DNA from: Octopus sinensis | Lineage: Eukaryota | Direction of reading: 5' to 3' | DNA length: 40,615 nt | Assembly (NCBI RefSeq): GCF_006345805.1 | Contig: NW_021835373.1 | Location: 1 to 40,615, forward strand | Part shown: positions 3,129 to 40,452 of the stretch, piece by piece | Numbering within the stretch: position 1 is the first letter of the stretch | How the letters are laid out: every line of letters starts with the position of its first letter | Notes under the pieces: generated by a model | Database searches by the model: none | Told to the model about the DNA's origin: nothing | What the model saw: the letters and a program-made list of their open reading frames with translations, nothing else | Program-made: the position numbers and the translations under genes

Positions 3129-3285
3129 AATAAAATAATATAACAGTGAAAATTGAATATTAAATTTGATGAATATCAATTTAAAACCAGTGGTCTAGCA
3201 TTATATACATACAAGAGGTAAGACCATAGGGGGTCGACTTCTAGCATATGGATGTCAACTTAATGGTCATCCCTCTTATATGTAT
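3129..3285 (-). mobile_element. Short fold-back element, probable Penelope-like 3' end relic
   Basis: Inverted arms 3205-3227/3263-3285 (20/23 match); shares caatt(t)aaaaccagtggtct(ct)agca with the element at 3323; flanked by (TA)n. Confidence 0.5.
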
Positions 3286-3322
3286 GCATATGTATATATA
3301 TATATATATAATATATATATAT

Positions 3323-3630
3323 AAAATTAAGGGTAGAAATTGATATTAGTCAATTAAAACCAGTGGTCTCTAGCAATAAAAGAATCCGAAGATTAAAATA
3401 TTTATATATACCAATTAAGGACTGAACACGAAAAGGTGGACAGTCAACAGCTAGATATAAGACGTCAAATCGCCATTCTCCACAAAGATTTTGTTCTCAA
3501 ATAAAAATAAAAATAAAAATAAAAATAAAAATAAAAATTTTATTGAGAACAAAATCTTTGTGGAGAATGGCGATTTGACGTCTATATCTAGCATGTTGAC
3601 TGTCCACCTTTTCGTGTTCAGTCCTTAATT

Positions 3631-3640
<10 letters not shown>
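3323..3640 (-). mobile_element. Fold-back element, probable Penelope-like inverted pLTR
   Basis: ~98-bp inverted arms 3403-3500/3543-3640 (two indels), (TAAAAA)n spacer, ~80-bp single-copy tail, in (TA)n. Confidence 0.6.
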
Positions 3641-3670
<30 letters not shown>

Positions 3671-3699
3671 CATATACACACACTCACACACATATATGC

Positions 3700-4152
3700 A
3701 TGATGCGATGGGTAAATTGTCGCCGAATTACTTTTAACTACGCGCATGCGCATTTTAAAAGAAATTTGTTGACTACACGGTAGAGTAGGGTCGGTTGGAC
3801 AAACTCTGTGAGAAAAACAGCACCTTGACGCAATTCACGCCACCAGAAATTTGGAAACTACATGCTCCACTGCTTAGCATTTGTACCGGAAGCTACGAAC
3901 AGATGCTGAACACACAGAACAACAGTTAGCTTGCCGTGTTCCCAAATCAGGTACCGTAAGTGATAAAAATCAAACATTCAGTCAACGTCATGGTGTTTGG
4001 GGTGATCTCTAGTGAAGACGACTTTATACCTCCATTCATCTTACCACACGGCATCAGACTCAACACGGAAACCTACGTCAAGCGGCTGGAGGATGTGCCG
4101 CTGCTCTGGGTCAAGAGGATGGCTGCTAGAAGATCCTATGTCTGGCAACAGG
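3700..4152 (+). mobile_element. Tc1/mariner (maT/DD37D-like) transposon relic, internally deleted
   Basis: ORF 3960-4178 KHSVNVMVFGVISSEDDFIPPFILPHGIRLNTETYVK...YVWQQ matches the maT catalytic region up to the second D; TIR-like gggtaaattgtcgcc at ~3711. Confidence 0.8.
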
Positions 4153-4489
4153 CGATTAAATCGGAGCAATTACAATGAATTTCATACCATGAAATTCCAG
4201 GGTGTATCGTAAGGAGGTTCAATTTCTGAACGGCCGCTTAAATGGGGCCACACTTACATCCCTACACACACATTTATTTCTACTGCATTTACCTAGTTCC
4301 TACGCTTATTGATTAAACTATGATCAGCATCAATGCTTAGCACATTTGCAGAAATAGGTTTGGGCATTCTAAAAAAATTCATGTGCATTCAAGATAAAGT
4401 ATTATAACAGGTACGCTCCAAGTGTAGTAGTGTGGATATTTATATTTTGTAGTTTACGAAACTTATGTCTAGTATATATTATATATATG

Positions 4490-4566
<77 letters not shown>

Positions 4567-4569
<3 letters not shown>

Positions 4570-4672
4570 TCAGGGTGAGTACTTGATAATTGTAAGCACC
4601 TGTATATAGCGTTTGGTGGTGTAGGTGGTGGAGTAAATTAATCATAGCACATGTTTTTATTTTGATTAATTT
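4567..4672 (-). mobile_element. Minimal fold-back relic in (TA)n
   Basis: aaattaatca (4635-4644)/tgattaattt (4663-4672) after a ~68-bp tail starting aattcagggtg, like the tails at 3323 and 33021. Confidence 0.35.
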
Positions 4673-4747
4673 TATATATATATAATATACTATATATATA
4701 TATAATATATATATATGCATTCGCCATAATAGATCGCTAGCCCCACC

Positions 4748-6464
4748 CATTCTTTATTTTCTCTCCTTGTTTCTTTCTTTGTTGTTTCTTTATTAGCCAC
4801 ACAGAGGGGGAAACTTACAAAATAGAGCTTTGCTTTTTGGGGAGAAAAAGTAAAGAAAAACAAAAGAAAAAAGAAAAAGTGGGGTAGGTTTTCGATCAAA
4901 AGGGATCATAAAAAAAAAGATCAATAAGGTTCGCGTATCACAGAAATGTCATGATGTAAAGTCTAAAGAGGGAAGCAGATAAGGTTTATTCGTGGAAAGA
5001 AAAGCCTACGGAAAAGACCACGGTAAACTCGGTCAATAATGTCACATGTTAACACATTGATTTGCAAGAAAGTAACTCTCTGTTTTTAATTTTTACAGGT
5101 TTATAGGATTATGCTCAAGGTGGCTTTGTTATTCATACGTGCCATCCTTGCTACATTTACCCATCTTTTTTTGATACTTGAAGAAGTTGATGAGAGATTG
5201 ACTAGAGAGGAAAGTGTTTGTCTCTGATCCTTTCAGACACGTCCACCGGATACATTCTTTCGTCACAGTCACAAGTATGTTGAAAATAGCTCTTCCTGAC
5301 GATATTGACAATAGACTCGGCTGATAAACCGACTCGCCCTACACTTGACAGCAGTCGTTTCACATAAGCCCACCGGTCGGAAATGGTTAGACACTGCATG
5401 AGTGCGTGCAGAACGCTTTCGTTGCTCTGACCTCATCTCGGGCAGGTCGGCGCCGTGTTTCTCGAGCCGTGTCTGTAGCGCTTATTCCGAACGGGTAGCG
5501 CTTCTCGGTAGCACGGCCAGGGATCTCTGGAAGTTGTCCAGAGGTCCTGGCCGGAAAGTTGTCTTAAACAGGCGGGTCACGTATTCTTCGTCGACGCCCA
5601 GGTTTGTCCCAAGATCGTCATCGTACCTCCCCTCCACTAATCCCCAATAGAATGCTTTGGTTGTGTTGAAGTCGCTCAAGGTCGATCCGTGACGGCATAG
5701 TTGCTTGAGAGCAACGCGACACTAGCGGTGCCATTCGCCCTTCCTCGGCCTCTTTTTGATCCACGACTGCAGTTCGGTCATGGAAACAAGCTGCGGGAAA
5801 GCGTGCCTCACAAACGGCGACCACACCTGTTCACCGTCGTCTACGTAGAGCTGGAAATGTCGCAGTCTCAGCGCGTGTCTGCGCATCATCAACCACGTCC
5901 TCCTTTTAATGGGTGTTGACTGCAAAAGGATCGCCTGACCATCGAGATGCATCATTTCCACAAGAAGCGGAAGAGAATGTGTTCTAGTTTGGTGATGGTA
6001 GGTTCGGGAAAAGGCATTACGCAGAGTGATGGGACAAAAGTTATCTATTATGTCCCCCTTGTTTAGATCTTTCTTCAGCAGTGTTACGGCTCCTCGGCTC
6101 ACAAAATCAGAGATGCTCCCGTTTTGCTGCCAGTTGCAATACACCGCTGTGAAGACGTCTCCAAACAAGTCTGGTAACAAGCTCGTAGGGTAGACCATCC
6201 AAACCCAGCGATTTGTCCCTCGAGCATTCTGCCATCGCGTCCCGCACTTCCGCCGCCGTGATGGAACTTTCGTAGCGCCCTGCCTCTCTTGTCGAGAGTC
6301 GTGGGAGGCTGTGTATGTAGGCACTGAAGTCCACCCTACGTTCTTTCCCGCCACTCGTCCCGAACAGTCGGGCAAAAGGCTGTTGAAAGGCCTTGCACAT
6401 TTTACTTGGCTTGAGTAATTCGTGCCCCTGTCCTTGTATATCCTCAATGGCCTTCCAAAGTTTC
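4748..6464 (-). mobile_element. L1-clade (Tx1-like) LINE ORF2 pseudogene, RT core deleted
   Basis: Minus-strand peptides ITAAEVRDAM..KSLGLDGLPYEL, VTLLKKD..NFCPITLRN, ITKLEHILFRFLWK..PLKGG; stops and frameshifts; 3' UTR ends at AATAAA near 4755. Confidence 0.8.
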
Positions 6465-6735
6465 TTGCTCAGGGAAGATCATCTTTGGTAGACACGGGTC
6501 GTCCATTCGGACTACATGTCCGTTCCACCGGAGCTGGGCCTTCATGATGAGGGCTTCGATGCCGGGCATTTCGGCTCTGCGAAGTACCTCAGTGTTGGAA
6601 ATTTCTATGGGTTCGTCGCAAGCAGCAGAGGTGGGAATGGTCAAGTCCTCGCATTTGCCTCCTATACAGCGTCCACGTCCCACAGCCGTAGAGCAGAGAG
6701 GTAATGACAACTGCCATATAAACTTCCAGCTTGGT
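6465..6735 (-). mobile_element. RTE-clade LINE fragment (post-RT region)
   Basis: KLEVYMAVVITSLLYGCGTWTLYRR and ISNTEVLRRAEMPGIEALIMKAQLRWNGHVVRMDD..LPK are typical of RTE/BovB. Confidence 0.85.
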
Positions 6736-6807
<72 letters not shown>

Positions 6808-6840
6808 CATACATACATACATACATACATACATACATAC
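6735..6840. repeat. (GATA)n(CATA)n compound microsatellite
   Basis: Seen directly. Confidence 0.95.
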
Positions 6841-6889
6841 TTACATATATACAAATATAGGTGGAACTTTCTGTTTTTCTCCCGGCCCT

Positions 6890-7005
6890 TACTTGACATT
6901 CGGTGTCGGTATGTTTACGTCCTCGTGACTGAGCGGTTCGGCCAAAAGTGCGAGATAGAATAAGTACGAGGCTTTAGAAAATAATAAGTACTGGATTCGA
7001 TTAAC
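6890..7005 (+). mobile_element. SINE family A, 3' half fragment
   Basis: gtttacgtcctcgtgactgagcggttcggcc...gatagaataagtac matches the other family A copies. Confidence 0.7.
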
Positions 7006-7244
7006 AAAAGCGTACAAGATGAAAGATAACAAAAACAGCAAAAACAAGCAAAAAACACGAATGTTAAACCATGCATAGGACGACTCCAAGAAAACTACAG
7101 CAACAACTTCAACTACATCTACTACTACTACTACTACTACTACTACCACTACTTCTACTACTATAACAACAACTACTAGTAGTAGGAGTACTACGGCTGC
7201 TTCTGCCACTGCTGCTGCTACTGCTGTTGCTGCTGCTGCTGCCT

Positions 7245-7330
7245 AGTGATTATTTTATCGGACACTTTCTGCGTAGTTGCTAAGTTACGGTGAGGTAAAT
7301 AAAGCGACACCGGTTGTCAAGCGGTTAGAA
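7245..7330 (-). mobile_element. SINE family A fragment
   Basis: gctaagttacgg...caccggttgtcaagcg. Confidence 0.6.
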
Positions 7331-7584
7331 ACTTAAAGATACACACACAGAAACTCATGCACACATACGCTCGCGAACGCGCACGCATACTCTTACACCC
7401 GCACGCACACTTACACTCACACACGCACACTCAATCACATACACCCACACATACACACGGTTACACCCACTAACACACACACTCACACACTTACACACAC
7501 ACACACACATACAACACACACAACACACACAAACACATATATATATATGTATATATATATATGTATATATATATATATGTATAG

Positions 7585-7680
7585 AAGCAGGTGTGGCTGT
7601 GTGGTAAGAGCGTTGCTTTCCAGCCATATCGTTCTGGGTTGAGTCCCACTGAGTGGCACTTTGGGCAAATGTCATCCAAT
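7585..7680 (+). mobile_element. SINE family A tRNA-like head fragment
   Basis: gtggctgtgtggtaag (A box)...gggttgagtccc (B box)...ttgggcaaatgtc. Confidence 0.7.
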
Positions 7681-8161: not shown

Positions 8162-8165
8162 TCAT

Positions 8166-8213
<48 letters not shown>

Positions 8214-8311
8214 TTCATCACCATCACCGTCAACATAGAAATCATCATTATATCGCTGTAGTTGTCTTCATCACCATCTTTATCATCTTCCCTGCCGTCA
8301 TCATCATCATC

Positions 8312-9154: not shown

Positions 9155-10248
9155 CTTTTAATCTGCATCTTTGTTACAATCACTCGCCAAGACACACCTA
9201 GGGTCCTAGGGTGATGTGAAGGATAAGAAATGCTACAGTATGACTCAAAGCTTGGGGAGGGCAAGAGGCAGAGGCAGTGGCGAAATATCTTCATGTAATA
9301 CAACACAGACATTTAAATTGATAGCGTTTTCCGAAGGATGTGGGCAGTACTTGTCAGCACAATCTTTTAGATTTTTCTGCGACATGGTTCTCCCGGGATA
9401 TTATCTAGATGTTTTTGACATCCCTTTTTATCATACCTAGTGCACCCTCATTAACAGAACAGTTCTTGCTTTAAGATGCTACATCCTTTATATTTCAATT
9501 TCCACGTCATTAAATTTATCTAATTCGGCAAATTCCTTTACAGACATATTTTTATCATTGGAAACACTTACATCTATTAGTCTACAACTATTTTCTTCCC
9601 TGTCTTTAATAACTATGTCTGGTCAATTAGCTTGGACGTTCTGTCACTGTTGACTGGAAATCCCAGACGTTAGTAACATTTTTACCTTCAACAACTGTCT
9701 CAGGACGATGTTCATAGCAGTAACTAGGAGTGTTGATTTTGTAGTATTTACATATTTTCCAATGTAAATACCGTCCTGCGGCTATCGTGACGATTTTTCT
9801 ATTCGTTTGGTGTCAGCACAGGACATTCCGAGACGAGACGGTCTATTGTTTCGTCAAATGTGCCGGAGAATCTGCATTTAGGGACAGAACCGTTTTGAAG
9901 AACTTTAGCCTGACAGTTTTTGGTACGTACGCTTTCGTCTTGTGCCGCTAATATGAAACTTTCAGTCTCTGCTTTCAGTCCTGAGCTTCTCAGCCACTGA
10001 TGGCTTGTTGCTTGGTCTACATCAGCATTTCGCCTTCGAAGTATATACTCTCCATGCAGAGGCTTCTGGCTCAGTCGCTCCTCAGTTTGTTTTTGCCCGT
10101 TCTTTGTTGCAGTCTACTTGATCCGTTTCGCGTGTTTTGTGGCAGTGATTTCAGGTTCTTCAACTATTTCAAAGTGAATGCCAAGTTCCCTTGCGAATTT
10201 GCAAGCTTCCTTGACAATAGAATATGATCTTTTGCTGCTTTCGTGTTA
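9155..10248 (-). mobile_element. R4/Dong-clade RLE non-LTR retrotransposon, 5'-truncated, in (TAA)n
   Basis: Minus strand WLRSSGLKAETESFILAAQD, decayed CCHC (CRF..ETIDRLVSEC), RHD, WDFPV..PDIVIKD..LIDVSV..KE, KIVLTSTAHILRKTLSI*; TAA repeats on both sides. Confidence 0.85.
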
Positions 10249-10309: not shown

Positions 10310-10794
10310 TAATAATAATAATAATAAAGCGGCAAACTGATAATAACAACATTACCATGCCGGACAAAGTTTTTGCTTCAGTTCGTCCGTGTTTCTTTTC
10401 TAAGTTCAAACTCTACCGAGGACCCCCTGGACTTTCCTATTTTGGGTGACGATAGAATAATATCTCGTGAGCACTGCGGTCGAAGTAATGGACTTTACCC
10501 AAGTTGCTGGTCTTGTGCCATATTTAAACCATATATGTATGTGTGTATGTGTGTGTGTGTGTGTGTGTGACTATAAAATTTCCAGTGTTCGAAAGAGCCA
10601 TATATTTAAATAGCGAATGTACTAAGGTCGGGGCGGTGATAGCGCGACTGTGAACAATCAATGCATTACGACAAATACGTGCTCACAAAAATAATGACGG
10701 ATTTCTTTTCCAGTTATGCACACATTCAAAAGTGGTTGACTGAAACACAATGAGTCAATACAAATCCAAACGAATTGCAATAGATGGATTGTGG

Positions 10795-10876
10795 TTCACT
10801 ACAACTGTTTCAGACGTCTTTTATTCATGAACAGAAGTGTTACATCATGCAAGAGAAACAGTTTTCATCAGATTAA
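10795..10876 (-). ncRNA. Type I hammerhead ribozyme, long stem II, partly decayed
   Basis: Minus strand UUAAU-CUGAUGA-[53 nt imperfect hairpin]-GAAA-CAGUUG-UA-GUGAA; one mismatch in stem I. Confidence 0.6.
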
Positions 10877-11129
10877 TACAATTAATAATTAGACCTTCTC
10901 AAGAACAAGTATATATTGCTAGGTGACACCCACGATCTATCAAATTTGGGTCGGTGATGCCATCTGTTACTATGGTGATTGTTCTGGAGATGTTCATAAT
11001 GTTTGCTTATTGCTTGCAATCACATGATGAATGTTTTTTGGGGGGTGGGGGCTTGATTTAACATTCCTGTTCCTGAATAAAAATCACTTCTGAAACAGCT
11101 GTAGTGGACATCAATCAATCTGTCATTAT

Positions 11130-12185: not shown

Positions 12186-12334
12186 TAACACTCACAGACA
12201 CGTAACCTCACACGCGCAAATATACGCGCACACTCGGAAAAACGCATGCATTTATATGTGTTTTTGTGTGTGTGTGAGAGAGAGAAAAAATATTTACTGT
12301 AAGTAACGTTGTACAAGAAACATTGATGAGTTAT

Positions 12335-12505
12335 TTACGTTCTGAGTTCAAATTCCACCGAGGTCGATTTAGCCTTTCATCCTTTCAAGGTCGATAAAGT
12401 AAGTACCAGTTTCGCACTAGGGTCGATGTAATCGACTTAATCCCTTTGTCTGTCATTGTTTGTCCCCTTCTATTTTTAACCCCTTGTGGGCAATATAGAA
12501 ATAAG
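12335..12505 (+). mobile_element. SINE family B (tRNA-derived, MetaSINE-like core), 5' truncated
   Basis: gttcaaattcc B box + gcctttcatccttt..ggtcgataaa..agtaccag core. Confidence 0.8.
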
Positions 12506-14075: not shown

Positions 14076-14963
14076 AAGAGAGTAATTTACTTTTCACTTT
14101 GAGCAGATGTAATACGTCAAGTAAGCCGTTATGTTTAATGGTCCTGTAAGCATATCCCACTAAGTGAACAGGAATCGCATCAGAATGCAGTGCCTTACAC
14201 TAAAGCTGTAAGTATATAGGGAATTTTAATGGCGAAACATAAGATCCCCCTAAGTATGGTTGGGTAACATGCGCCATGCTTTATTTCACTGTTTAAGATA
14301 ACTAAGTAGTCGAGAGCAAATATAGAAACCGTCTCGATTCTTTCATTCTTTGATCCCGTGACATATCCAAGATGAGACAGATGAAAGTGGAAAGTGTATT
14401 TATTTTCACCGGAGTAGTATAGAGAAAACTGAAATCAAGCACTGCTCCGTCGAAGAATTGAACTTACAAATTATGGTCGTTAGTTGAATACCTCTAGGCC
14501 ACACGCCTGCAGACATGGCCGAGAGAGTATATTAACTATCGATAATGTGTTATAAGATAAAATTGATAATGCTGTTTTCAATATATTACACGATGTAAAA
14601 TCTTTACTGGTATTTTACAGGGAATGGGTTGACCTGTCTGTTGAGTGTTGCTCCGCTTGGCATCTTGCACTGATGGTACCACAAAATATCGTTAATGCAT
14701 CTGACTGTTCATAGCGAACCCTCTGAAATGGCGTTTTCTAAAATCGAGAATTTTTCTCCACGGCAAATTGCGGAGAATAACCCCATTTGCACCTCAAATA
14801 TGACCCAAGGTTATTTGAAGTTATTTGACGCTTCAATTTCTTTACTTTATACCACTGCTTCGTGTGACACCCATATATGTTACATTATGTTTCTACATTG
14901 ACAAATATCTAATTTGTTTTAAGTATGACTCAATAAATTTTTCGTATTATAAATAATAGTAAG

Positions 14964-15105
14964 GTACATGCATAGCTGTGTGGTAAGGACCTTGTTTCCC
15001 AACCACATGGTTCCGGGTTTAATTTCATTCCTAGTGTTTTGTACTATAACCTCGGGCCAACTAAAGCCTTCTGAGTGGGTAAGGTAGAGGGAAACTGAAA
15101 TCCTG

Positions 15106-15108
<3 letters not shown>
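14964..15108 (+). mobile_element. SINE family A, 5' half (3' half at 17045-17250)
   Basis: gctgtgtggtaag...ccacatggttccgggtt...cctcgggcc...ggaaactgaaa, then (TA)n. Confidence 0.8.
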
Positions 15109-15145
<37 letters not shown>

Positions 15146-15173
15146 GAGAAAGAAGCAACAAGAATGGATTAGT

Positions 15174-15264
15174 TTTTAGTACAATTGTTTCATACAAAGA
15201 CAGGCTTTATTACAAGTTGCAAAAATTGCAGCAGATAAAAGTGTCCCGTACTCATCAGCTAAAA
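15174..15264 (-). ncRNA. Type I hammerhead ribozyme, long stem II, GUA cleavage site
   Basis: Exact reverse complement of 16198-16288. Confidence 0.8.
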
Positions 15265-15380
15265 TACATATGAGTTCTCCAGACATCTTAGTGGGTGAGG
15301 TTATACTCATGAAATATTGGAGATAATTCCATTAAAGGCAGATATAGATTGCAAACAGTTTTTCAAAGTTCCTTAATGAT

Positions 15381-15584
15381 GATGCACAGTCTTATCACAG
15401 ATTTTTAAAATCTTATTAGTTTCAAAGAGAAGATGAATTAATCCATAGTGTAGATTTAAATTTCCAGAGATATGAGGAGGGTGATGCACAGACTTATCAC
15501 AGGTTTTTAAAAAAACTTATTAGCTTCACAGAAAAGGTGAATTAATCCGTAGTGAAGATTTAAATTTCCAGCGGTATGAGGAGG
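15381..15584. repeat. ~102-bp tandem duplication (2 copies)
   Basis: gatgcacag.cttatcacag...tgaattaatcc.tagtg.agatttaaatttccag...tatgaggagg at 15381 and 15483. Confidence 0.85.
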
Positions 15585-16197
15585 AAATTTCATACTCACA
15601 GACGATGAATTTAACCATTATTAATCCACAATCATTTCATGCTATATGATAAGGTAATTTGCCATATTACTGCTCTCCGTGCAAAACTGCTATGTTAATA
15701 TTTCTAAAGCTGAAGGAATTTACTTGTGGGGCAAAGAAAATAAAATGACAGAAAAAAGAAAAGAGACAAGGAAAAAAGAAAAAGAAAAAGAAAAAGAAAA
15801 AGAAAAAGAAAAAGAAAAAAGAAACAAAAAGAAAAAGAAAAAGAAAAAACGAAACGGGGGAGAAGGATAAGAGAAGGATAGAAAAGAAAAAGAAAAAGAA
15901 AAAGAAAAAGGAAAAGAAAAAGAAAAAAGGGGAAGAGGGAGCTAATAAGTTTTTTTTAAAAACCTGTGATAAGTCTGTGCATCACCCTCCTCATATCTCT
16001 GGAAATTTAAATCTACACTATGGATTAATTCATCTTCTTTTGAAACTAATAAGATTTTAAAAATCTGTGATAAGAAGTGCATCATCATTAAGGAACTTTG
16101 AAAAACTGTTTGCAATCTATATCTGCCTTTAATGGAATTATCTCCAATATTCATGAGTTAACCTCACCCAGTAAGATGTCTGGAGAACTCATATGTA

Positions 16198-16288
16198 TTT
16201 TAGCTGATGAGTACGGGACACTTTTATCTGCTGCAATTTTTGCAACTTGTAATAAAGCCTGTCTTTGTATGAAACAATTGTACTAAAA
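16198..16288 (+). ncRNA. Type I hammerhead ribozyme, long stem II, GUA cleavage site
   Basis: UUUUAG-CUGAUGA-GUACGGGACA..UGCAA-uuu-UUGCA..UGUCUUUGUAU-GAAA-CAAUUG-UA|CUAAAA; 6-bp stem I; predicted cut after 16282. Confidence 0.8.
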
Positions 16289-16441
16289 ACTAATCCATTC
16301 TTGTTGGTTCTTTCTCGTTTATAATCACCCCACATTACTGTATGGTTAACACCATATAGTTTTTCTGGTGCATCTAAGTTAAGTACCACATTCAAGACAA
16401 TCATTGGAATACTTGAATCTTAATTGCTTTTATATATATAT

Positions 16442-16520: not shown

Positions 16521-16531
16521 ATATATACATA

Positions 16532-16820
16532 TATAATATATTCGAGACAAAACCACTATTTTAAAACCAAACAAGGAAAGACTTAATCAATACATAAAAT
16601 TTTAATATAAATTAAATAAAATAAATATTTATTTATTTTATTTATTTAATTTATTTATTTAATTTATATTAAAATTTTATGTATTGATTAAGTCTTTCCT
16701 TGTTTGGTTTTAAAATAGTGGTTTTGTCTCGAATTATATTATATAATATTTTACTATAAATTGGATTTAACCCTAAATCTGATTTTTCCCTGTAATTTTG
16801 GATTCATTCCCTAATATTTA
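16532..16820 (+). mobile_element. Fold-back Penelope-like 3' end, same family as 40098-40452
   Basis: 80-bp inverted arms 16541-16620/16654-16733; arm and tail clearly homologous to 40098-40250. Confidence 0.7.
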
Positions 16821-16961: not shown

Positions 16962-17044
16962 ATGTATATTTATATAGATATGTATGTATGTATGTATATT
17001 TATATATATATATATATATATAAATGTGTGTGTGTATGTATATA

Positions 17045-17250
17045 TTTTGTGCCTGTGTTTGTCTCCTCACCATTGCTTGACAAACGATGTTGGTATGTTT
17101 ACATGCTGGTAACTTAGCGGTTCGACAAAACAACCGATAGACTAAGTACAAGGCTTACGCAGAATAAGTCCTGGGGTAGATTAGTTCGATTAAAGGCAGT
17201 ACTTCAGCATGGCCGCGGTCAAACGACTGACACAAGTAAGAGAAAGAGAG
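17045..17250 (+). mobile_element. SINE family A, 3' half
   Basis: tttgtctcc..cttgacaa..aacttagcggttcg..aataagtcctgggg..cagcatggccgcggtcaaacgactgacacaagtaag. Confidence 0.85.
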
Positions 17251-17389
17251 TAATATTTGAGTGGATATCGATCCCAGTAGTTGATTGTTCCATCGCTTTA
17301 TTGAATGAGACCTGAAGGGAAAAAAAAGTGATATTGTTCTCAGCGAGGTTTGAACTCAGAATACCAGCAGACGTAAGTTAGAAATAAAT

Positions 17390-20948: not shown

Positions 20949-20980
20949 ATATACATAGGTAGTTATGTATATATACATGT

Positions 20981-21312
20981 CCAGCTGGACTCAAGAGTCA
21001 ACTTCGTAGTCATAAAACGAGACAGATGAATGACAACCTGGCCACTGGTGGTGGTGTAACACACCATACTAATCATATCTGTCAGGCATGTGGAAGAGAG
21101 TGTAATTCGGCAGGAGGACTTAAACGACATGCAAAGGTACATGAAGCCCAGTTACAACTACAGCCGGCTATTACCGGTAAAGGCTTTAGTTGCCAATTTT
21201 GTACAAGACATTGTAGATCTTTAGCTGGGCTAAAAAGTCACATTCGATCACAGCACCAGTAACAGTTAAGCTTCGTGCAATGGCCATACTCGATAACGAG
21301 GGGGCAGCCATA
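20981..21312 (+). mobile_element. RTE-like LINE 3' end with tandem C2H2 zinc fingers
   Basis: In-frame PAGLKSQLRSH..CQACGRECNSAGGLKRHAKVH..CQFCTRHCRSLAGLKSHIRSQH*; short 3' UTR ggccatactcgataacgaggggg with a ctcg/cgag hairpin. Confidence 0.7.
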
Positions 21313-21669: not shown

Positions 21670-21793
21670 TGGAAGCACAAGGCTTCAAATCTAGTGGGGG
21701 GGATTAAGTACATTACATCGGCCCAATGCATAACTGGTACTTATTTAATCGACCCCGAAAGGACGAAAGGCAAGGCCAACGCCGCCAGAATTT

Positions 21794-21795
<2 letters not shown>
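21670..21795 (-). mobile_element. SINE family B fragment
   Basis: ctggtacttatttaatcgaccccgaaaggacgaaaggc. Confidence 0.75.
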
Positions 21796-21844
<49 letters not shown>

Positions 21845-21924
21845 TATAATAATGAGAAGAAGAAGAGGAGGAGGAGAAAGAAGTGGAACAAAAAGAAGAA
21901 GGAGGAGGAGGAGAAGAAGAAGTG

Positions 21925-21964
<40 letters not shown>

Positions 21965-21967
21965 CAT

Positions 21968-22370
21968 TCTTTATACTGTAGTCACAAGGCCCGAAATTTT
22001 TGGGAAGGGAGCCAGTCGGTTAGATCAACCTCAGTACGCAACTGGTATTTCATTTATCTACGCCGAAATGATGAAAGTGAAAGGCAAAGTCAACCTTGGC
22101 GGAAATTGAACTCAGAGCGTAAATACACGAAATACCTATTTCTTTACTACCCACAAGGTGCTAGACACAGAGGGGACAAACAAGGACAGACAAACGAATC
22201 AAGTCGATTATATCGGTCCCAGTACGCAACTGGTACTTATTTAATCGACCTCGAAAGGATGAAAGGCAAAGTCGACCTCGGCGGAATTTGAACTCAGAAC
22301 GTAATGGCGGACGAAATACCACAAGGCATTTCGCCCGGCGTGCTTAACGTTTCTGCCAGCTCGCCGCCTT
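21968..22370 (-). mobile_element. SINE family B, tandem/dimeric copy
   Basis: Two core + B-box units; head ends ttctgccagctcgccgcctt at 22370; in TAA/TAG repeats. Confidence 0.85.
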
Positions 22371-22374
22371 AATG

Positions 22375-23417: not shown

Positions 23418-23635
23418 CCTTTTCTAACTAGGCAAAAAAGGCCCGGAATGTTGGAGAGGAAGCCAATCGATTAGATCGATCCTAGTACGCAACTGGTTCT
23501 TAATTTATGGGCCCCCGAAATGATGAAAGGCAAAATTGACCTCCGCGGAATTCGAACATTGAAAAGAAAACCGGAAGAAATGGCACTAAGCATGTTGTCC
23601 GGTGTGCTAAAAATTCTGCCATCTCGCTGGCTTTG
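23418..23635 (-). mobile_element. SINE family B, degenerate full copy
   Basis: caactggttc..cccgaaatgatgaaaggcaaa..ttctgccatctcgc. Confidence 0.75.
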
Positions 23636-24483: not shown

Positions 24484-24559
24484 TGCATTGAGAATGAGGA
24501 AACAAGTTGTGCCTTGGACTGCATTTTTGTCTGGTAGACATCAGCAAAAAAATTGCTTA

Positions 24560-24747
24560 TTCGTTTACTTCTTTCAGTCATTTGACTGCGACCATGCTGG
24601 AGCAATGCCTTTAGTCGAACAAATCGACCCCGGGACTTATTCTTTGTTAGCCCGGTACTTATTATATCGGTCTCTTTTGCGGAACCGCTAAGTTACATAA
24701 ACACACTAGCATCGGTTGTCAAGCAATGCTAGGGGGACGAACACAGT

Positions 24748-24845
<98 letters not shown>

Positions 24846-25013
24846 TATATACGACGGCTTCTTTTGAGTTTCCGTCTATCAAATCCACTCACAAGGCGTT
24901 GTTCGGCCCGAGGCTATAGAAAAAGACACTTGCCCAAGGTGCAACGCAGTGGGACTGAACCCGGAAGCATGTGGTTGGTAAGCAAGCTACTTACGCAGAG
25001 CCACGCCTGGGCC
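24560..25013 (-). mobile_element. SINE family A, full length, internal (CA)n(TA)n
   Basis: Complete head, body and tail matching the 37058-37487 copy. Confidence 0.9.
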
Positions 25014-25434
25014 TATAAACAATGCCCCGTAATCTTGTCAGATTTAATGGATAGAGTAGTTTCGAGATTTCCAGAAAGTATTAACATTAAGGAGATGCAT
25101 AATTGTTTGAATTCTTGCTGTTTTACCTCATGAAAATAAATTGACAGATTTAAATATTGATTTGCAAACAATTTCATTGTAAAACACAGGAGCCAACAAC
25201 AGGAATATCTAGTCACCTCTTACGAAATTTCAAAATTAATTTAACCATTACCTAGTACTGATAAATCTCTCGACCTACCAGCTGTAGCTAAAATTATACC
25301 CTCGTATACCGCTGCATAAGACGGGCTTTTTTTTTTATTTAAATGTAACAACAAATTGACGTGCGTCTAAAGCGATGGTATTTCAGTTGGGATACCGAAT
25401 ATAGGCCGGGTGTAATCATTTTCCGTGTATCTGT

Positions 25435-26174: not shown

Positions 26175-26680
26175 GTATACATATACATACATACACATAC
26201 ATATTTATGTAAGTAGGTATTTTGTATGTATGTTTGCATGCATATAGGTATGTATGCATGCATGCATACCCCAGCATGTTATTTCACAATTTTTCTATAT
26301 CGGAGGCAACAATTTTTTTCTAGTCATGAGGCTGTTGAAACATATCATTGAAAAGGCCCAAAAGGAACTAAACGCATCTCGTGCCTTCGTTGGTCTCAGA
26401 TGGCTGATATTTATTGCTCTCGATACAGCACGAGGGAACAATTGGCCTGCCGACGCTCTAGATACATTAGATGGCAATTTTAAAAATAAAATTGCAGTTG
26501 ATGTTTTGATACCAGTGATATCGAACCCAATTCCTGGTATATGATGATAAGTTTTAGATGATGAGATCAATTAACATTTAAAAAAAAAGGAATTAAAAAA
26601 TGCTTTTCAAATCCATTTCTGTCTTTTTGATTATTTTGTTCATCAAAATATAATGATCGACGATAGACTAACGAAAGATT
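25740..26680 (+). mobile_element. hAT (ZMYM1/Tip100-like) transposase relic split by a microsatellite
   Basis: Collinear decayed motifs CRQ..YDVASN (cf. CRGQxYDGASN), NPRIYHC (cf. NPxAxYxHC), KRISCLRWSQ (cf. LKRLSxTRWS). Confidence 0.45.
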
Positions 26681-29889: not shown

Positions 29890-29990
29890 CGGGAAGTGTG
29901 GGTCAATTACATCGTCCACATTATTCAATTGGTACTTATTTTATCGATCCCGAAACGATGGAAAGCAAAGTCAACCTCTGGTGAAATGTA
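29890..29990 (-). mobile_element. SINE family B fragment
   Basis: ggtacttattttatcgatcccgaaacgatggaaagcaaagtcaacctc. Confidence 0.7.
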
Positions 29991-30941: not shown

Positions 30942-31964
30942 GTACCATTATCAGTTGGTTTGATTTGTGTGAATTATCTTTACAACGCGGCCTTCCCCAA
31001 TTGACTTCAGTTAAAGAGGGGCATTATAAAAGAGCAAATACTCGCAAGGTGTCGCTGCATCACGTGGCGGAATGTGTAAACCTGTATTTATTTACTCACC
31101 ATTACCTTCTAGATGAAGGACCTCGTCTGAGGACGTGTGCGAAATATCAAATGTATGCCAAGGATGGTTTTTCTGTCCGTTGTGTTTGTATCACATAGAC
31201 GTGTACACACACAAAAATATGTGAAGTGTTCAGGGATTTTTACATTATTTACATTATTTGACGGATATTTGTCCTCATCTTGTTTATTGTTAGAGGACAA
31301 ATATCCGTAAAATGTAAATAATGTAAATAATGTATATAATTCCTTATCTCTTAAATATAGAACTGTATTATTCATGGATATAAATATGTGTGCGTAATTA
31401 TGGGCCTGGGTGTATATATGCCTGTGCGTGTGTGTGCGTGCGCGTACGTGCGTATGTGTGTGTGTGTACGTGCGTGTGTGTGTATGTGTACGTTTATGTG
31501 TGTGTTTGTGTGTGTGTATGTGTGCGTATGTGTGTGCATGTGTGTGTGCGCGTGTGTGCGTGCATGCCTAGTTCCCAATGTGCCATATGCGAAACAGCTT
31601 ATATATGGTCTGGGAAAAGATTATTAATGGAATCTTCCTATTTTCTCTCAGACTTGTCTTTTAGCTCTCTTTATTCTAAGAGGTCAGAGAGAGAGATGCC
31701 TTTTAGAATTGGTCGCCCCGATATATATATACATATTATACGGTATTACCTTATCACAGCATCGACCAGACTATCTAATATTGTTAGACATCGCCGATCA
31801 CGGTGTGCTTCTTATTTAAACTCCCGAAAGACCCCATCTCGCTGACCAGGTGGGCAGGACAACGCCGGCCCTTAACAGAACCCCAGTTCATCGCAGGGAA
31901 CCCAATTACTGCTTGCTGAACTATATATATGTGTATGTGTGTTAGTGTGTGTGTGGGGGGGGGG

Positions 31965-32378
31965 GCTACCTGTTACAGTCATGTGACTGCGGCAATGGTG
32001 GAGCACCGCCTTGAAGACTATTTAGTCGAATGTATCGACCCCAGTATATATTTTTTATGAGCCTGGTACTTATTCTATCTGTGACCTTTGAGAACCGCTA
32101 CGTTACGGGGAACATAAACACACCAAAGCACACACACACACACACATACATATACATACATCCATCCATCCATCCATCCATCCATCCATCCATCCATCCA
32201 TCCATCCATCCATACTTACATACATACATATATACGACAGTCTTCTTTTAGTTTATGTCCAGCAAATCCACACACAAAGCTTTGGTCGGCACCTAGGCTT
32301 TAGTAGAATACACCTGCACAAGGTGCCACGCAGCGTGACCGAAACCGGGACCTTGTGGTTGGTAAGCAAGCTTCTTAC
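31965..32378 (-). mobile_element. SINE family A, near full length, internal (CATC)n
   Basis: Tail, body and head motifs present. Confidence 0.85.
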
Positions 32379-32524
32379 CATACACACACACATATATGTG
32401 TATACGTGTGTTTATAAATAAATGTCCGCAAGTTCCTTTCACGTATTATACATGCACACATGATACATTCATATATCCATATGTATCCGTATATATATAT
32501 TATATATATATATATATTATATAT

Positions 32525-33020: not shown

Positions 33021-33266
33021 ATAATGAAGGGTGAAATTAATTAATTTGGAATAATTATCAATTACACCAAGTAGTCTTCGGCATGTAAAAGCCTTATTCG
33101 AGGAAAATTTAAGTAATACTAAGCAATAAAGGGTTTAGCAACGAATTGCCTTACCACATACCGAATTTAGAAATAGCAGTCAAAGAGTTATAGCTATTTC
33201 TTCTACTAAAAAGGGAGATCTCAGTAAAAACAGCAATAAATTGCTAAACCCTTTATTGCTTAGTAT
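33021..33266 (-). mobile_element. Fold-back Penelope-like element with hammerhead relic
   Basis: Perfect 26-bp inverted arms 33116-33141/33241-33266; ~95-bp tail; minus-strand CUGAGA..GAAA-UAGCUA-UA at 33185-33224; (TA)n flanks. Confidence 0.6.
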
Positions 33267-33720: not shown

Positions 33721-33794
33721 GTTGCTGTAGCTGGGACGGTCCTGCTGATATAAACGAATACATAACCTTTATAGTATACAGGACAAATATTCTT

Positions 33795-34115
33795 CAGGCA
33801 GCGAGATGGCAGAATTCTTTGCTGGACGAAATGTTTACCGGTATTTCGTCTGCCGCTACGTTCTGAGTTCAAATTCCGCCGAGGTCGACTTTTCCTTTCA
33901 TCCTTTCGGGGTCGATTAAATAAGTACCAGTTACGCACTGGGGTCGATATAATCGACTTAATCAGTTTGTCCGTCCTTGTTTGTCCTCTCTGTGTTTAGG
34001 CCCTTGTAGGTAGTAAAGAAATAGGTATTTCGTTTGCCGTTACGTTCTGAGTTCAAATTCCACCGAGGTCGACTTTGCCTTTCATCCTTTCGAGCCCGAT
34101 ATATTAAGTACCAGT
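33795..34115 (+). mobile_element. SINE family B, tandem/dimeric copy
   Basis: ggtatttcgt..acgttctgagttcaaattcc.ccgaggtcgacttt..cctttcatcctttcg repeated at ~33840 and ~34024. Confidence 0.9.
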
Positions 34116-34641: not shown

Positions 34642-34645
<4 letters not shown>

Positions 34646-35581
34646 CGCATCTGCAACATGAGCTGTACACAATATACAGGTGGGCTGAGGACAACAACAT
34701 GCAGTTTAATGCAGGTAAGTTCCAGGCCCTGCGTTACTGGCACACAAAGGTAAATGACGTGAAGACTGGATACACTGGCCCAGGAAGAATTGCAATCCCT
34801 GAGTCAAAATCAGTGCGTGACCTGGGCATTGACATGAGCAATGATGCATCTTTCCAAATGCATATTGCTAATCTGGTGATAAAATGCAGACGGCTAGCTG
34901 GATGGATTCTCCGAACTTTCAGAACAAGATAGAAGGAGACACTGATGGTCCTATGGAAAACATTTGTCCTCAGCCGCTTGGACTACTGCTCCCAACTTTG
35001 GTCACCACACAATATAAACAAACAGCAGAACTCGAAGCAACTCAGAGAAGCTACACAAAGAAAATCGTCTCAATGCAAAATGTCAGCTACTGGGAAAGAC
35101 TGAAGGTATTAAACCTCTTCTCCCTGGAGCGGAGGCGGGAGAGATATGCAGTGATATACATCTGGAAAATCCTGGAGGGTCTTGTCCCAAACTTTGGCAT
35201 TCAAAGTTACTCCAACCCAGAACGGGGCGCCGCTGCGTGGTGCCAAGGATTCCAACATCACCATCAAAATACAGGTCCAGATTCTGCAACAGCTTGGGTT
35301 TCAGAGGACCACAGCTCTTTAACATCCTCCCTAAATGCCTGAGAGACTTACATGGTGTGGATGTGGGTTTCTTTAAACTAAACTGGATCTCTTCTTGTTG
35401 GGAGTCCCAGATGAACCTACCTCACGACAGGAGACACGGATGCGGACAGCAGCATCGAAATCCCTTGTTGATCAAGTGCCACGTATCAGAGGTGGATTCA
35501 CAAACTAGTGTAGCTCATTCAGCGGTGGTACCCCAGCATGGCCGCGGCCTTCGGGCTAAAACATTTTTAAGGATTTAAGGA
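34642..35581 (+). mobile_element. CR1/L2-group LINE, 5'-truncated 3' portion
   Basis: WAEDNNMQFNAGKF..VRDLGI..ILRTF, LDYCSQLWSP, YWERLKVLNLFSLERRRER; 3' tail cccagcatggccgcgg..aaaacatttttaaggatttaaggat. Confidence 0.9.
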
Positions 35582-35626
35582 TATATATACATATATATAT
35601 GTATGTATATATAATATATATGTATG

Positions 35627-35695
<69 letters not shown>

Positions 35696-35878
35696 TATGT
35701 ATATATACATATATGTTAATATGTATAATATATATATATATACATATTCACATAGGTATATATGCGTTTTGAAAGTGAGTGTATGCATATAGTTTATATA
35801 TGTATATGTATATGTATGCTGTATATGCATGTATGTATATATATACTACAATTATATATATACATATATTAAATATTT

Positions 35879-35925
<47 letters not shown>

Positions 35926-36789
35926 GTATATATGTATGTATGTATGTACGTATGTATGTATGTGTGTATGTATGTGCGTATATACATAAGTGTATTTATG
36001 TTTGGTTTTGTACTTACATCTAACGTTTTACAATATTTCTATTTCTTCGCTTCACTTTCAATTATACTTTCTTCCTTATCCAAATATCTTCCGCCAATCA
36101 CAGCTGCATTGAAGTACAAACAGGCTCCCATAATCAAACAACACTGCCCACTACAAACATACAGAATTACACACACCTACACACAGACACTCTCACACAC
36201 AAATATGGAAGCACTCACTCGCAAGCACGAAAAGCCAGCACACCCACACGCATAGAAGCAATAATACGGACGTTGACATATTCTTAAAAACGTTCATAGA
36301 ATCGCACATGAAGAGGATCTTCGAGGCCCACCACTCACACACATGAATCCATTGTCGAAATGATTCCTGCAACAACCATAACCACCTTCACCACCGCCAC
36401 CACCAGCCTCAACAACATCATAACCAGCAACAGCAGTATCATTTACTTCTCATCGCAGAGAATATATATGTGTCTCCCATAGAAACCATTATGCATACGG
36501 TGACATCTATGTAACCATGGTTATAAGTGAAAAGTAGAAAACCTTTCGGAGACATCTTGCCAGCTTCCATCTCTCTGTGCCATATAGAGAGAGTCGCACT
36601 AACCCTTACGTAACATGTCACACACGCTCTCACAAACGCAGGCAAACACTCACAAACACACACATAATCTTGAAGATGTGAATAAATATCTGTGGTGTGT
36701 TTGTGTGTGTGTCTGTGTGTATGTTTGTAAGGTATCGCCCTCCCCATCGCCTCGCTCATTTCAAGGGAGATAATTATTAACCGTTTATC

Positions 36790-36990
36790 CTGTTTCTTAT
36801 TTGTTTCAATATTTAACCTCCGGCCGTGCTGTGGCACCGCATTGAAGAGGTTTTGCTCAAACGAATCGACACCCAGTACATTTTTTTAAAAAGCAGCGCT
36901 CAGTCTATCTCTTTCCTTTGTCGAACCGCTAGTTTACACGAACGTAAACACATCAACACCAAATGACAAGCGGTAGCGGGGGAAAAACAG
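36790..36990 (-). mobile_element. SINE family A-related degenerate 3' half
   Basis: ttgtttcaat..cggccgtgctgtggcaccgc..cgaaccgctag..gtaaacacatcaacacc. Confidence 0.65.
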
Positions 36991-37057
36991 ATACGGCAAT
37001 ACACATATACATAAACATATGTATGTGTGTGTGTATATACTCTTTATTCTTTACTAT

Positions 37058-37291
37058 TTTACTCTTTTATTTGTTTCAGTCATTTGACTGTGGCCATGCT
37101 GCCGCACCGCCTTTGGTTGAGCAACTCGACCCCAGGAGTTATTCTTTGTAAGCCTAGTACTATCGTCACTTTTGCCGAACCGCTAACTTACGGGGACGTA
37201 AACACACCAGCATCGGTTGTCAAGCGATGTTGGGGGGACAAACACACACACACAAACACACGCAAACACACACACACAAACACACGCATAT

Positions 37292-37322
<31 letters not shown>

Positions 37323-37487
37323 CGACGGGCTTCTTTCAGTTTCCGTCTACCAAATCCACTCACAAGGCTTTGGTCGGCCCGAGGCTATAGTAGAAGACAC
37401 TTGCCCAAGGAGCCACGCAGTGGGACTGAACTCGGAACCATGTGATTCGTAAGCAAGCTACTTACCACACAGCCACTCCTACGCCTA
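37058..37487 (-). mobile_element. SINE family A (Octopus-type tRNA-derived), full length, young
   Basis: A box tggctgtgtggtaag, B box gttccgagttcagtcc, internal (TG)n/(TA)n, tail cagcatggccacagtcaaatgactgaaacaaataaaagag. Confidence 0.9.
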
Positions 37488-37559
37488 TGCGTATATATAT
37501 ATATATATATATATATATGCATTTGTGTATCTCTCTCTCTCTCTCTCTCTCTCTCTATA

Positions 37560-37605
<46 letters not shown>

Positions 37606-38050
37606 CATACATGAATAATAGCCATGAGTGGGGGTAAAGCAGAAAGTTACCCAGAATGTATAAGGCAAGGGAAAAAATGGAGAAGATAATGAATCAACGA
37701 ACTTCAGCCTACAAACATTCATTTGGATCTATTTATTAATTAATTAGTCATATTTATAAGTAAGTAAACAAATAAATAAAGGAAATTAAAAAAATACGTA
37801 AATGAATAAGAATAAATGATTGAATAATACTATAATCTAACAGCTGCTTCTACTTTGGGGGTTCCAGCTTGCCAAGGTTTATACATCGTAACAGTATTAT
37901 AAAGAGATGGTACAAAGGCTGAACAACAATTGAACCGGGCTTGGACAATAATTGAGCCGCAAAGCTTCTTCAGAGTGTCCATAATGGTAAGAATCAAACA
38001 TGTGAGGCAGTAAAATAAAATAATAAAATGATAAAAATAGTAAAAAATAT

Positions 38051-38135
38051 CCATAGGTTACGAAATTACATCTTATTGCGAAAAAAAGTCACTTCTGCAA
38101 TTAATCTCCATAGGTTATGAGAATTACATCTTATT
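38051..38135. repeat. ~27-bp direct repeat pair
   Basis: ccataggttacgaaattacatcttatt (38051) and ccataggttatgagaattacatcttatt (38108). Confidence 0.75.
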
Positions 38136-38299
38136 TCAATTTACTGGGGGATATATATAAAGGGTTAGACGTAGTGGAGTGAGGTTAGTACGATGGTGGA
38201 TATCACAGGGGTCAAAACTTAGAAACTAAAGTCTATGTAATAGGCTATCATAGAATTAACAAGGTTAACTTAATGTGAACTTATTTGGGGAAATCAATA

Positions 38300-38790
38300 T
38301 AGTAGAAGACACCTGTGTAAGATGTCATACAGTGGGACTGAAAACGTAACCATGTGGTTGGGAAGTAAGCTTCTTACCACACAGCCACGTCTGTATATCA
38401 TTTATCTTTTGTCTTGTACTTGTTTCAGTCATTCGACTGCAGCCATGTTGGGGCACCGTCTTGATGAATTTTTAGTTGAACGAATCGGCCACGGTACGGT
38501 ATATATTCTATCAGTTATTTGTGCCGAACCACTAAGTGACGGTCACGCAAACGCAAAACACCGATTGTTAAGAGTTGTGCGGAGGCGGGAACAAGCATAG
38601 GTGCAAACACATTCACGCATTCATATATCTATATGCAGTGGACTTCAGTACAGTTTCTGTGTAACAAATTTCCCCACTGGGCATAGGTCAGTTCAGAGCT
38701 AAAGTAGAAGGCACTCGACAAATGTGCAGTGCAATGAAACTGAACAAGAAGTCATATCGTTGTAATTGTCCTTCTTAAACATACAGTCAT
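38300..38790 (-). mobile_element. Two adjacent degenerate SINE family A copies
   Basis: Head fragment 38300-38390; decayed full copy ~38405-38790. Confidence 0.7.
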
Positions 38791-39150
38791 ACAAGCGTCT
38801 ATAACAAGGATTAAGATGGTCAACTCTTATTTCAATCCCCCTCTAGTGTTCTGGCTATGTACGAAAGTTGAAATTTAATTCATTCTGTATAAATAAGACG
38901 CGAAAGTTTTTCAGAATTCAGACTTTCAGGAGAGTAAATTATGCGAGAATTTTCATATCTACCAAGCCAAATAGAAACGTATAATCGGTATGTAGCGTAT
39001 ATTTGTATTGGAGAAGAGAAAGAAAGGAAATTTAATCATGAACAAGCCATCGAAGTGAGATGTATGTTTACGAAAACATATCATATTACTATTACGCATC
39101 TCAAGTGGTGAGGAATATAAACACACACACACAAAGGCATATATAAATAA

Positions 39151-39183
<33 letters not shown>

Positions 39184-39284
39184 CGTGTGTGTATATTTAC
39201 ATATATATATATGTGTGTGTGTGTACATATATATATATATTATAGTTAGATATACATACATATGTAACATATATATAATATATA

Positions 39285-39356
<72 letters not shown>

Positions 39357-40097
39357 AACACTCGCTAAAAGCATGTAAATATATATTAGTATACACATAT
39401 TTATATATATATATATGTATATATATATATACATGTATATATATATACGTATATATATATGTATGTATATATATATAGATATATATATGTATGTATATAT
39501 ATATATATGCATGCATGTATGTATGCATGCATTTATGTATATAAGTATGCACGTATTCCCGTGCAGAGTCACTTTCCTGAAAACGTTAGAATCAAAAGAA
39601 ATATGAGGAAATATAAATTTTTTTTTTTTTAAGTAACCAGAGAGAACGTGGCGAATATATGGTTTAGGAACGACAACCCCACCAGTGCGGAAATACTCCG
39701 ACATCACTGACAATCTGACAGAACGTTGACAAGTATAATTGAGTGACTTCCAATATCATTAGAAATATTTATGTGGTGACAGGGACACCGTAGGCATATA
39801 ACGGCATGAACAGAGAGAATGAATAAGTACTAATATAATTTGAGGTAAAAGAGAAGGAAAAACGTGAGGACTGAAAATTAAAAGACATGCCTCAGTGGTT
39901 AAGAAGCTTGTTTTGGAAGCACGAGGTGTACGGTTCAATCTCGATACCTGGTAAATTTTAGCTAGTCTGTTCTGCTGTATCTGCGGATGACTAATCGAGC
40001 AATACTTGAATTCGTAGATGTATATATGTGAGTGTATGCGTGTGTGTATGTATGTATGCATATATGCATATATATATATATATAATAATAATAATAA

Positions 40098-40452
40098 ATA
40101 TTAGGGAATAAATCCAAATTTACAGGGATAAAAATCAGATTTAGGATTAAATCCAATTTTATAGTAAAATATTATAAAATATTATTAGAGACAAAACCAC
40201 TATTTTGCAAAACAAACAAGGAAAGACTTAATCAATACATAAAATTTTAATAAATAGTCAAAAAAACCGCCACTACAATTGTTTCTTGTCTTGATCGACA
40301 ATCTTCAGGTGGACTTCCAATAAGTCAGTTTCAAATTATGAAGTAATTGTAGTGGCGGTTTTTTTGACTATTTATTAAAATTTTATGTATTGATTAAGTC
40401 TTTCCTTGTTTGTTTTGCAAAATAGTGGTTTTGTCTCTAATAATATTTTATA
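40098..40452 (-). mobile_element. Fold-back Penelope-like pLTR with intact hammerhead
   Basis: 108-bp inverted arms 40173-40280/40345-40452, ~75-bp tail, (TA)n flanks. Confidence 0.8.
40270..40312 (-). ncRNA. Minimal type I hammerhead ribozyme, GUA site
   Basis: Minus strand CCAC-CUGAAGA-UUGUC-GAUCAA-GACAA-GAAA-CAAUUG-UA|GUGG; all core positions and three stems intact. Confidence 0.85.

Follow-up and report, generated by a model that had tools for sequence, protein, structure and literature searches.

What kind of mobile DNA leaves short, head-to-head inverted copies with a single-copy tail at one end, embedded in (TA)n microsatellite, is the question raised by a stretch of the Octopus sinensis genome (assembly GCF_006345805.1, contig NW_021835373.1, positions 1 to 40,615). 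The whole of this stretch, 40,615 nucleotides, is referred to here as the window. An original prediction, made from the letters alone, described seven such fold-back elements and proposed a dense system of TA-targeting, ribozyme-bearing, mostly non-coding retroelements. The elements are probably insertions into (TA)n of the 3' ends of several endonuclease-containing (EN+) Penelope-like retrotransposon families, with copying likely aborted early. It is most likely that the copies are such early-aborted insertions and not a new non-coding system.

Seven tailed elements and their TA flanks

The elements are labelled A to G in order of their start positions, and an extra, decayed element is labelled H. 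Arms were measured by local alignment, and a range in tail length gives the value with or without overlap into TA.

3129..3285, minus strand: element A; tail 3129-3204, short diverged arms 3205-3227 and 3263-3285 (20 of 23 positions matched)
3324..3632, minus strand: element B; tail 3324 to about 3405, arms 3411-3506 and 3538-3632 (94 of 96)
4567..4672, minus strand: element C; tail-like end, arms 4635-4644 and 4663-4672 (10 of 10)
15145..16430, plus strand: element D; tail-less arm 15145-15525, tail-bearing arm 15940-16317 (374 of 381), tail 16318-16430
16531..16819, plus strand: element E; arms about 16531-16626 and 16649-16741 (about 96 bp; 103 of 108 if the alignment is extended into the TA-rich flank), tail ending at 16819
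33021..33263, minus strand: element F; tail 33021-33118, arms 33119-33149 and 33233-33263 (28 of 31)
40098..40448, minus strand: element G; tail 40098-40176, arms 40177-40280 and 40345-40448 (104 of 104), 64-nt spacer
15380..15584, no strand assigned: 104-bp tandem pair within D, units 87% alike
10783..11120, no strand assigned: element H, decayed and absent from the original prediction; head-to-head pair 10783-10850 and 11051-11120, about 80% alike

Each of the seven has a single-copy tail at one end only, and the measured lengths of 68-113 nt (A 76, B 79-87, C 68, D 112-113, E about 74-78, F 95-98, G 75-79) bear out the tail of roughly 70-110 bp that had been predicted. The setting in (TA)n was confirmed as well: a perfect TA run of at least 10 nt lies 0-14 nt from all 14 ends, as against 9% of other bases with such a run within 25 nt. 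A fold common to all tails was sought and rejected, as the D tail alone folds beyond chance (z of -3.1; the other six range from 0.1 to -1.8).

The window is TA-rich, with 63 merged TA tracts and 62 segments between them, of which 58 were scored for arms and four long ones skipped. The five highest scores belong to D (714), G (208), E (165), B (164) and F (47), with A at 31 and C at 20, and unrelated, longer between-tract segments score up to 39, above both A and C. Shuffled sequence reached the observed score in 0 of 400 trials for A and for F and in 1 of 400 for C; the C arm, which is 10 bp of A and T letters only, loses significance once the 58 tests are counted. A sliding scan blind to TA picked up B, D, E, F and G (five of the seven, with A and C missed) within a total of 16 local inverted repeats; element H and a hairpin at 31217-31358 were also in the set, the remainder being mostly low-complexity. 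The count of seven can therefore be kept for the clear arms of B, D, E, F and G and for the weaker A, with C doubtful. The hairpin at 31217-31358 is symmetric and resembles a miniature inverted-repeat transposable element (MITE), with 9-bp subrepeats and with neither tail nor TA flanks. Profiles of four tail types found no further copy and no uninverted copy in the window; they were built from inverted elements, so that other families escape them.

Together the seven elements make up 2741 bp, or 6.7% of the window, and six of them are shorter than 360 bp. The predicted density of about one element per 6 kb agrees with the number found, but it masks clustering (A and B share one TA tract, D and E another) and overlooks the decayed H.

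Insertions of probable Penelope-like origin

E and G, 23.5 kb apart and in opposite orientation, form one family and are 88% alike. Both outer ends are identical in position, the inner ends differ by about 110 nt or less, and both arms of each copy bear that copy's own variants. In the shared tail (16757-16819 and 40098-40160) a 21-nt unit recurs imperfectly three times, always closing with CCCT, and one unit in the E tail resembles a reverse telomeric repeat. The tails of A, B and F appear related by shuffles (0, 2 and 0 of 500), and the tail-like end of C is marginally similar to B (8 of 500). D and H have no kin among the elements compared; a kinship between them through a long stem II was rejected, 128 of 1000 shuffles being as good, as was a third 104-bp unit inside the D spacer (score 28 versus 32 on the reverse strand). 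H is flanked by (TG)n, unlike the (TA)n of the others, and has a partly broken hammerhead in each arm, one arm retaining the 5' core and the other the stem I pairing.

The site that received D and E is itself repeated in the window.

14962..15110, plus strand: left half of a dispersed host repeat, with D and E inserted in its (TA)n tract
17025..17258, plus strand: right half of the same repeat, beyond D and E

In all three other copies aligned (24548-25014, 31967-32384 and 37051-37473) the two halves adjoin, and the two empty-site junctions inspected consist of (TA)n(TG)n and nothing else. Because the host repeat is uninterrupted in these copies, D and E are insertions rather than assembly artefacts. 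A target-site duplication would be concealed by (TA)n, the empty sites showing microsatellite only. The host repeat resembles a short interspersed element (SINE), with an internal (TA)n(TG)n tract, and further fragments of it occur in the window. Differences between the arms of B, D and E are mostly single-base insertions or deletions; these are read as consensus errors, and B, D, E and G are thus probably young.

A descriptor of the type I hammerhead ribozyme matched three times in 40.6 kb, twice in D and once in G, always reading towards the tail or outer end. The mean expectation is 0.01 per window, and 2 of 200 block shuffles gave one match.

16198..16288, plus strand: D hammerhead in the tail-bearing arm; type I motif with a 60-nt stem II region and palindromic stem III, predicted cut after 16282
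15174..15264, minus strand: the D hammerhead motif again, within the tail-less arm, with cleavage predicted at 15180
40270..40312, minus strand: G hammerhead; minimal type I motif with palindromic stem III, predicted cut at 40274

Folding predictions have stems I and II of the G motif forming and two copies co-folding as a dimer through the palindromic stem III; with longer flanks, the predicted minimum-free-energy structure of the monomer differs from the hammerhead fold. A dimer-type design with palindromic stem III is described in PMC4209133 and tabulated for the Hydra clade in PMC8557442. F retains a hammerhead 3' half at 33200-33189 with a degenerate 5' core, and the descriptor found no motif in A, B, C or E, of which E is truncated 3' of the hammerhead position. 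The prediction of ribozyme-bearing elements accordingly narrows to a whole motif in two of seven (D and G) and a 3' half in F. In a read-through transcript, pairing with the arms is predicted to take up 91 of 91 nt of the D motif and 12 of 43 nt of the G motif, the cleavage strand among them; ribozyme activity of the genomic copies is therefore improbable. A lone hammerhead-like 3' half on the plus strand at 40555-40567, right of G near the window end, is perhaps due to chance, there being 14 such matches in the descriptor scan.

Several hallmarks of Penelope-like elements are thus present. An inverted, 5'-truncated, head-to-head copy with 3' ends outward is clear in B, D, E, F and G, weaker in A and doubtful in C; the hammerheads of D and G lie near the 3' end on the sense strand, upstream of the tail; the tail is one-sided; and 5' truncation varies between E and G. 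A direct pseudo-long terminal repeat (pLTR) or partial tandem, a feature that is optional in short copies, was not seen in comparisons within the window. The same anatomy is reported in PMC8557442 (a 5'-truncated copy in inverted orientation, a tail of 30-40 bp that may lie at either end, and insertion into (TA)n by the Neptune, Naiad and Hydra clades), in PMC3846280 (inverted pLTRs with palindromic junctions) and, as guidance for curation, in PMC8969392. With the inverted truncated copy, one-sided tail and (TA)n targets already on record in PMC8557442, the proposal of a distinct new system does not hold. The same source lists Hydra-1_Obim and two octopus Naiads as (TA)n-targeting, PMC8967140 places Penelope among the expanded repeats of coleoids, and PMC13282606 gives Penelope-like elements as 6.83% of Octopus vulgaris in 190 families, a figure that the 6.7% of bases found here matches, for a single window. 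A Penelope-like origin is very likely for D, E and G and probable for A, B and F, and for C the chance is about even. Family membership was judged by non-coding features only, no coding parent having turned up.

Among the named systems, Hydra and Neptune are the best matches for D, E and G, given the combination of hammerhead and (TA)n target, and Naiad is disfavoured. Members of the Hydra clade (Hydra-1_Obim of Octopus bimaculoides and Penelope-13_HM; PMC8557442) are described as targeting (TA)n and as carrying, close to the 3' end, a type I hammerhead whose stem III is palindromic, as here, and Penelope-13_HM also as having an inverted truncated copy. Three Hydra consensus sequences, by an eye count of our own and not a claim of those authors, extend 54-71 nt beyond a TATA-like stretch 3' of the ribozyme. 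Hydra-1_Obim has no sequence match to the elements by motif search or by eye, and the 60-nt stem II region of D differs from it. The protein marks of the Hydra clade are RWK, DKT and a CxCX5C linker with no CCHH; no such protein was found in the window. Neptune is likewise described as combining a bias to (TA)n microsatellites with minimal hammerheads, although its diagnostic zinc-finger linker is not in the window; a canonical hammerhead with a (TA)n target, being common to Hydra and Neptune, is not diagnostic. Naiads (Naiad_Obim, Naiad_Ovul) share the (TA)n targets, inverted copy, tail and presence in octopus, but are without a canonical hammerhead, so that D, E and G do not fit among them and A, B, C and F could. 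In published descriptions, two start sites flank the tail of Poseidon from Anolis (PMC11167929), and Penelope of Adineta vaga (PMC3846280) has an inverted pLTR whose junction is palindromic, features that recall the elements here; their tails are 30-40 bp and overlap the start of the frame, whereas the tails here are 68-113 nt and no such frame was recognised.

A number of results weigh against a Penelope-like origin. Pfam returned no reverse transcriptase (RT) or GIY-YIG match in 196 frames of at least 45 amino acids (searched in sets of 150 and 46, with shorter or low-complexity frames excluded), and these scans together with one of 11 frames gave C2H2 fingers at 20963-21259 and otherwise weak matches below the cutoff; the scan is insensitive, having also missed an RT-like fragment at 34872-35339. 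D gave no protein match in two readings despite about 490 nt kept upstream of its hammerhead, one of the two being a 64-amino-acid frame through that hammerhead, with support from none of 7 candidates. Rfam reported no hammerhead at the gathering score, targeted scans of G and of the right arm of D gave no ribozyme, and an E-value scan held no hammerhead among the best 150 of 465 matches, which were dominated by microsatellite microRNA models. A, B and C are without a ribozyme. Three short motifs, from A/B, D/G and E, are not in the consensus file of Craig et al. (PMC8557442), and the tails are two to three times the published 30-40 bp. What supports the assignment is where the hammerheads sit and which way they point, together with outer ends that are fixed, inner ends that vary, and the empty-site comparison. 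A search for further copies in bacterial and archaeal genomes gave none. Searches of titles and abstracts found nothing on such ends in octopus or on a link to editing; most subscription papers, Repbase and Dfam lie outside that search and may hold these families. New at most would be the 68-113 nt tails over several families, the apparent one-tail rule and the 60-nt stem II region in D.

On the plus strand of D, opposite the ribozyme, 15180-15750 is protein-like in broken frames with a repeat of about 35 amino acids. As a sign of a captured gene this antisense reading was rejected, with no match in 1.84 billion proteins (stops read as X).

Some or all of the elements could instead be dedicated non-autonomous families, that is, retrozyme- or SINE-like derivatives mobilised by Penelope-like proteins, which the original prediction implied but which is considered unlikely. 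No element has any coding trace, D has a long non-coding stretch with its 104-bp tandem, and non-autonomous Penelope derivatives are on record: non-LTR retrozymes (10.64898/2026.07.22.740005) are described as short, non-coding and Penelope-derived with a type I hammerhead, as here. Those retrozymes are head-to-tail tandems, however, whereas the elements here are head-to-head pairs with a tail, and no head-to-tail ribozyme tandems were found. The inner ends of E and G, differing within about 110 nt, fit truncation, and the six elements under 360 bp are, judged by eye, so short that in Hydra-type parents they would stop before the frame or only just touch its end. The mostly non-coding nature of the elements is most simply accounted for by truncation within the 3' end.

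DNA transposons of the MITE or Foldback type that target TA would account for inverted arms and TA flanks but are highly improbable, as the arm never extends to the tail end (68-113 nt there being single-copy), hammerheads and variable inner truncation are present, and the TA-flanked matches include no symmetric two-ended copy. Still less credible are artefacts of assembly or of chimeric reads, or breaks at (TA)n cruciforms that were repaired by way of hairpins: the one-base differences between arms do resemble long-read consensus error, but no flanks are duplicated, empty-site paralogues exist for D and E, the shared outer ends of E and G make chimeric reads unlikely, and H has the same layout at 20% divergence. 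The prediction had named such artefacts, or the lack of fixed tail boundaries and of any Penelope-like parent, as grounds for refutation; E, G and the three paralogues speak against the first, and a fixed tail boundary was seen in the one family with two copies (E and G).

Joining of the two arms

A Penelope-like protein has been reported to nick and extend both strands of AT-rich DNA, with reverse transcription starting at two internal RNA sites, one on each side of the tail; the steps after priming are stated in the same source to be unvalidated (PMC11167929). On a twin-start model of the elements here, a dimer of the RT-endonuclease would nick both strands of (TA)n. One nick would prime at the far start and give the tail-bearing arm. 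Priming from the second would take place at the near start, where a TATA-like stretch can pair with the target, and would give the tail-less arm. Both complementary DNAs (cDNAs) would stop after 0.1-0.8 kb, and these aborted products would be joined head to head through short self-complementary ends. Such a join of two cDNAs is proposed tentatively, at a little below an even chance.

All five elements from the TA-blind scan have exactly one tail, an outcome with a probability of at most 0.5^5 = 0.03 if the ends were chosen independently. In D, the tail-less arm runs on to at least 15584 and has at least 59 bp absent from the tail-bearing arm, the 104-bp tandem being complete in the former and reduced to 1.4 units in the latter; this extra sequence is not explicable by copying from the element's own cDNA. 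At the tail-less end, overlap with TA amounts to 8 nt in B, 4 in G and 3 in F, and overlaps of these lengths occur at 0.6%, 1.7% and 5%, respectively, of the positions within those elements.

The other model requires a single priming event, after which the first cDNA folds on itself and is copied back towards the target, switching to (TA)n at the TATA-like stretch, or the hairpin is trimmed there by the endonuclease. This snap-back route is nearly as likely as the twin-start join. The centres of B (an 8-bp palindrome at 3534-3541) and E (a perfect 16-bp palindrome at 16619-16634) are loop-less, which favours it over the twin-start join, and in G and F the spacer is part of the tail-bearing arm (that of G contains most of its hammerhead). 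The arms of one insertion also have copy-specific variants in common, junction palindromes are interpreted as self-priming in PMC3846280, and the tail is attributed to endonuclease resolution in PMC8557442. The longer arm of D, on the other hand, is the tail-less one, so that snap-back needs a later deletion or a trimming step, and extension of both strands from two start sites by the purified protein (PMC11167929) also speaks against it. Two further points count against the twin-start join: TA overlap is 0-1 nt in A, C and D, and the in vitro experiments, done with a Poseidon element, are reported to show no homology at the start sites (PMC11167929). The central part of D could also have been lost later. 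Arm inner ends of AGCT in D and AATT in G are compatible with both models. Simple repeats other than TA lie at the arm junctions of B ((AAATAA)n, 3499-3538), D ((AAAAAG)n in the spacer, 15753-15927) and E (16626-16667) and may be native sequence or reiterative copying. Counting which arm holds the spacer in young two-armed copies genome-wide would separate twin priming from snap-back.

Double-stranded RNA and other sequence in the window

The elements had also been expected to seed double-stranded RNA (dsRNA) hairpins in overlapping transcripts. Structurally this is sound: predicted hairpin energies are -167 kcal/mol for B, -701 for D, -131 for E and -177 for G, and a Porath-type measure of near-perfect hairpins after PMC5625713 (50-bp tiles, more than 95% identity over 40 bp, within 2 kb) places 180 of 4057 tiles in local inverted pairs of this kind, to which B, D, E and G contribute 115, microsatellite 65 and other sequence none. 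No transcript, host gene or editing trace was found at the window. An A/G imprint of editing was seen in 0 of 6 substitutions between E and G, 0 of 3 between the D arms and 1 of 3 in A, numbers too small to tell. For a candidate exon of a host gene at 26323-26539 (216-217 nt, with splice-like ends, open on both strands) no relative was found.

For Octopus bimaculoides, PMC5625713 reports 0.44% by its measure and calls this exceptionally high, with octopus omitted from its repeat analysis; the 2.8% found here, from one selected window and another aligner, is not comparable. In the same report Penelope is the sole massively edited repeat of the long interspersed element (LINE) class in lizard, and squid editing is described as ubiquitous and directed to repeats in PMC9068888. 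It is conceivable, if rather a long shot, that Penelope-like insertion in this genome is fold-back by rule, with one long and one short start, and is the main non-microsatellite source of near-perfect dsRNA. If true, the fold-back rule would account for octopus hairpin content and for the hyper-editing that lacks a repeat assignment in PMC5625713, and hundreds of thousands of natural junctions would be available to decide how Penelope-like elements complete integration. Should the pattern hold genome-wide, the ends would be prime substrates for ADAR and small-RNA pathways.

A second dispersed repeat family, with internal duplications, occupies 12332-12503, 21700-22372, 23438-23632, 29902-29987 and 33793-34115; two copies, 22073-22372 and 33793-34091, lie 11 kb apart in inverted orientation and are 84% alike. 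A broken, RT-like LINE fragment spans 34645-35575 (first Atlas match 0.91, to a reverse transcriptase family, with a low recognition score), and, to judge by motifs, further putative LINE-like fragments lie near 5700-6700 and 9800-10110. The C2H2 match at 20963-21259 is a frame with two zinc fingers.

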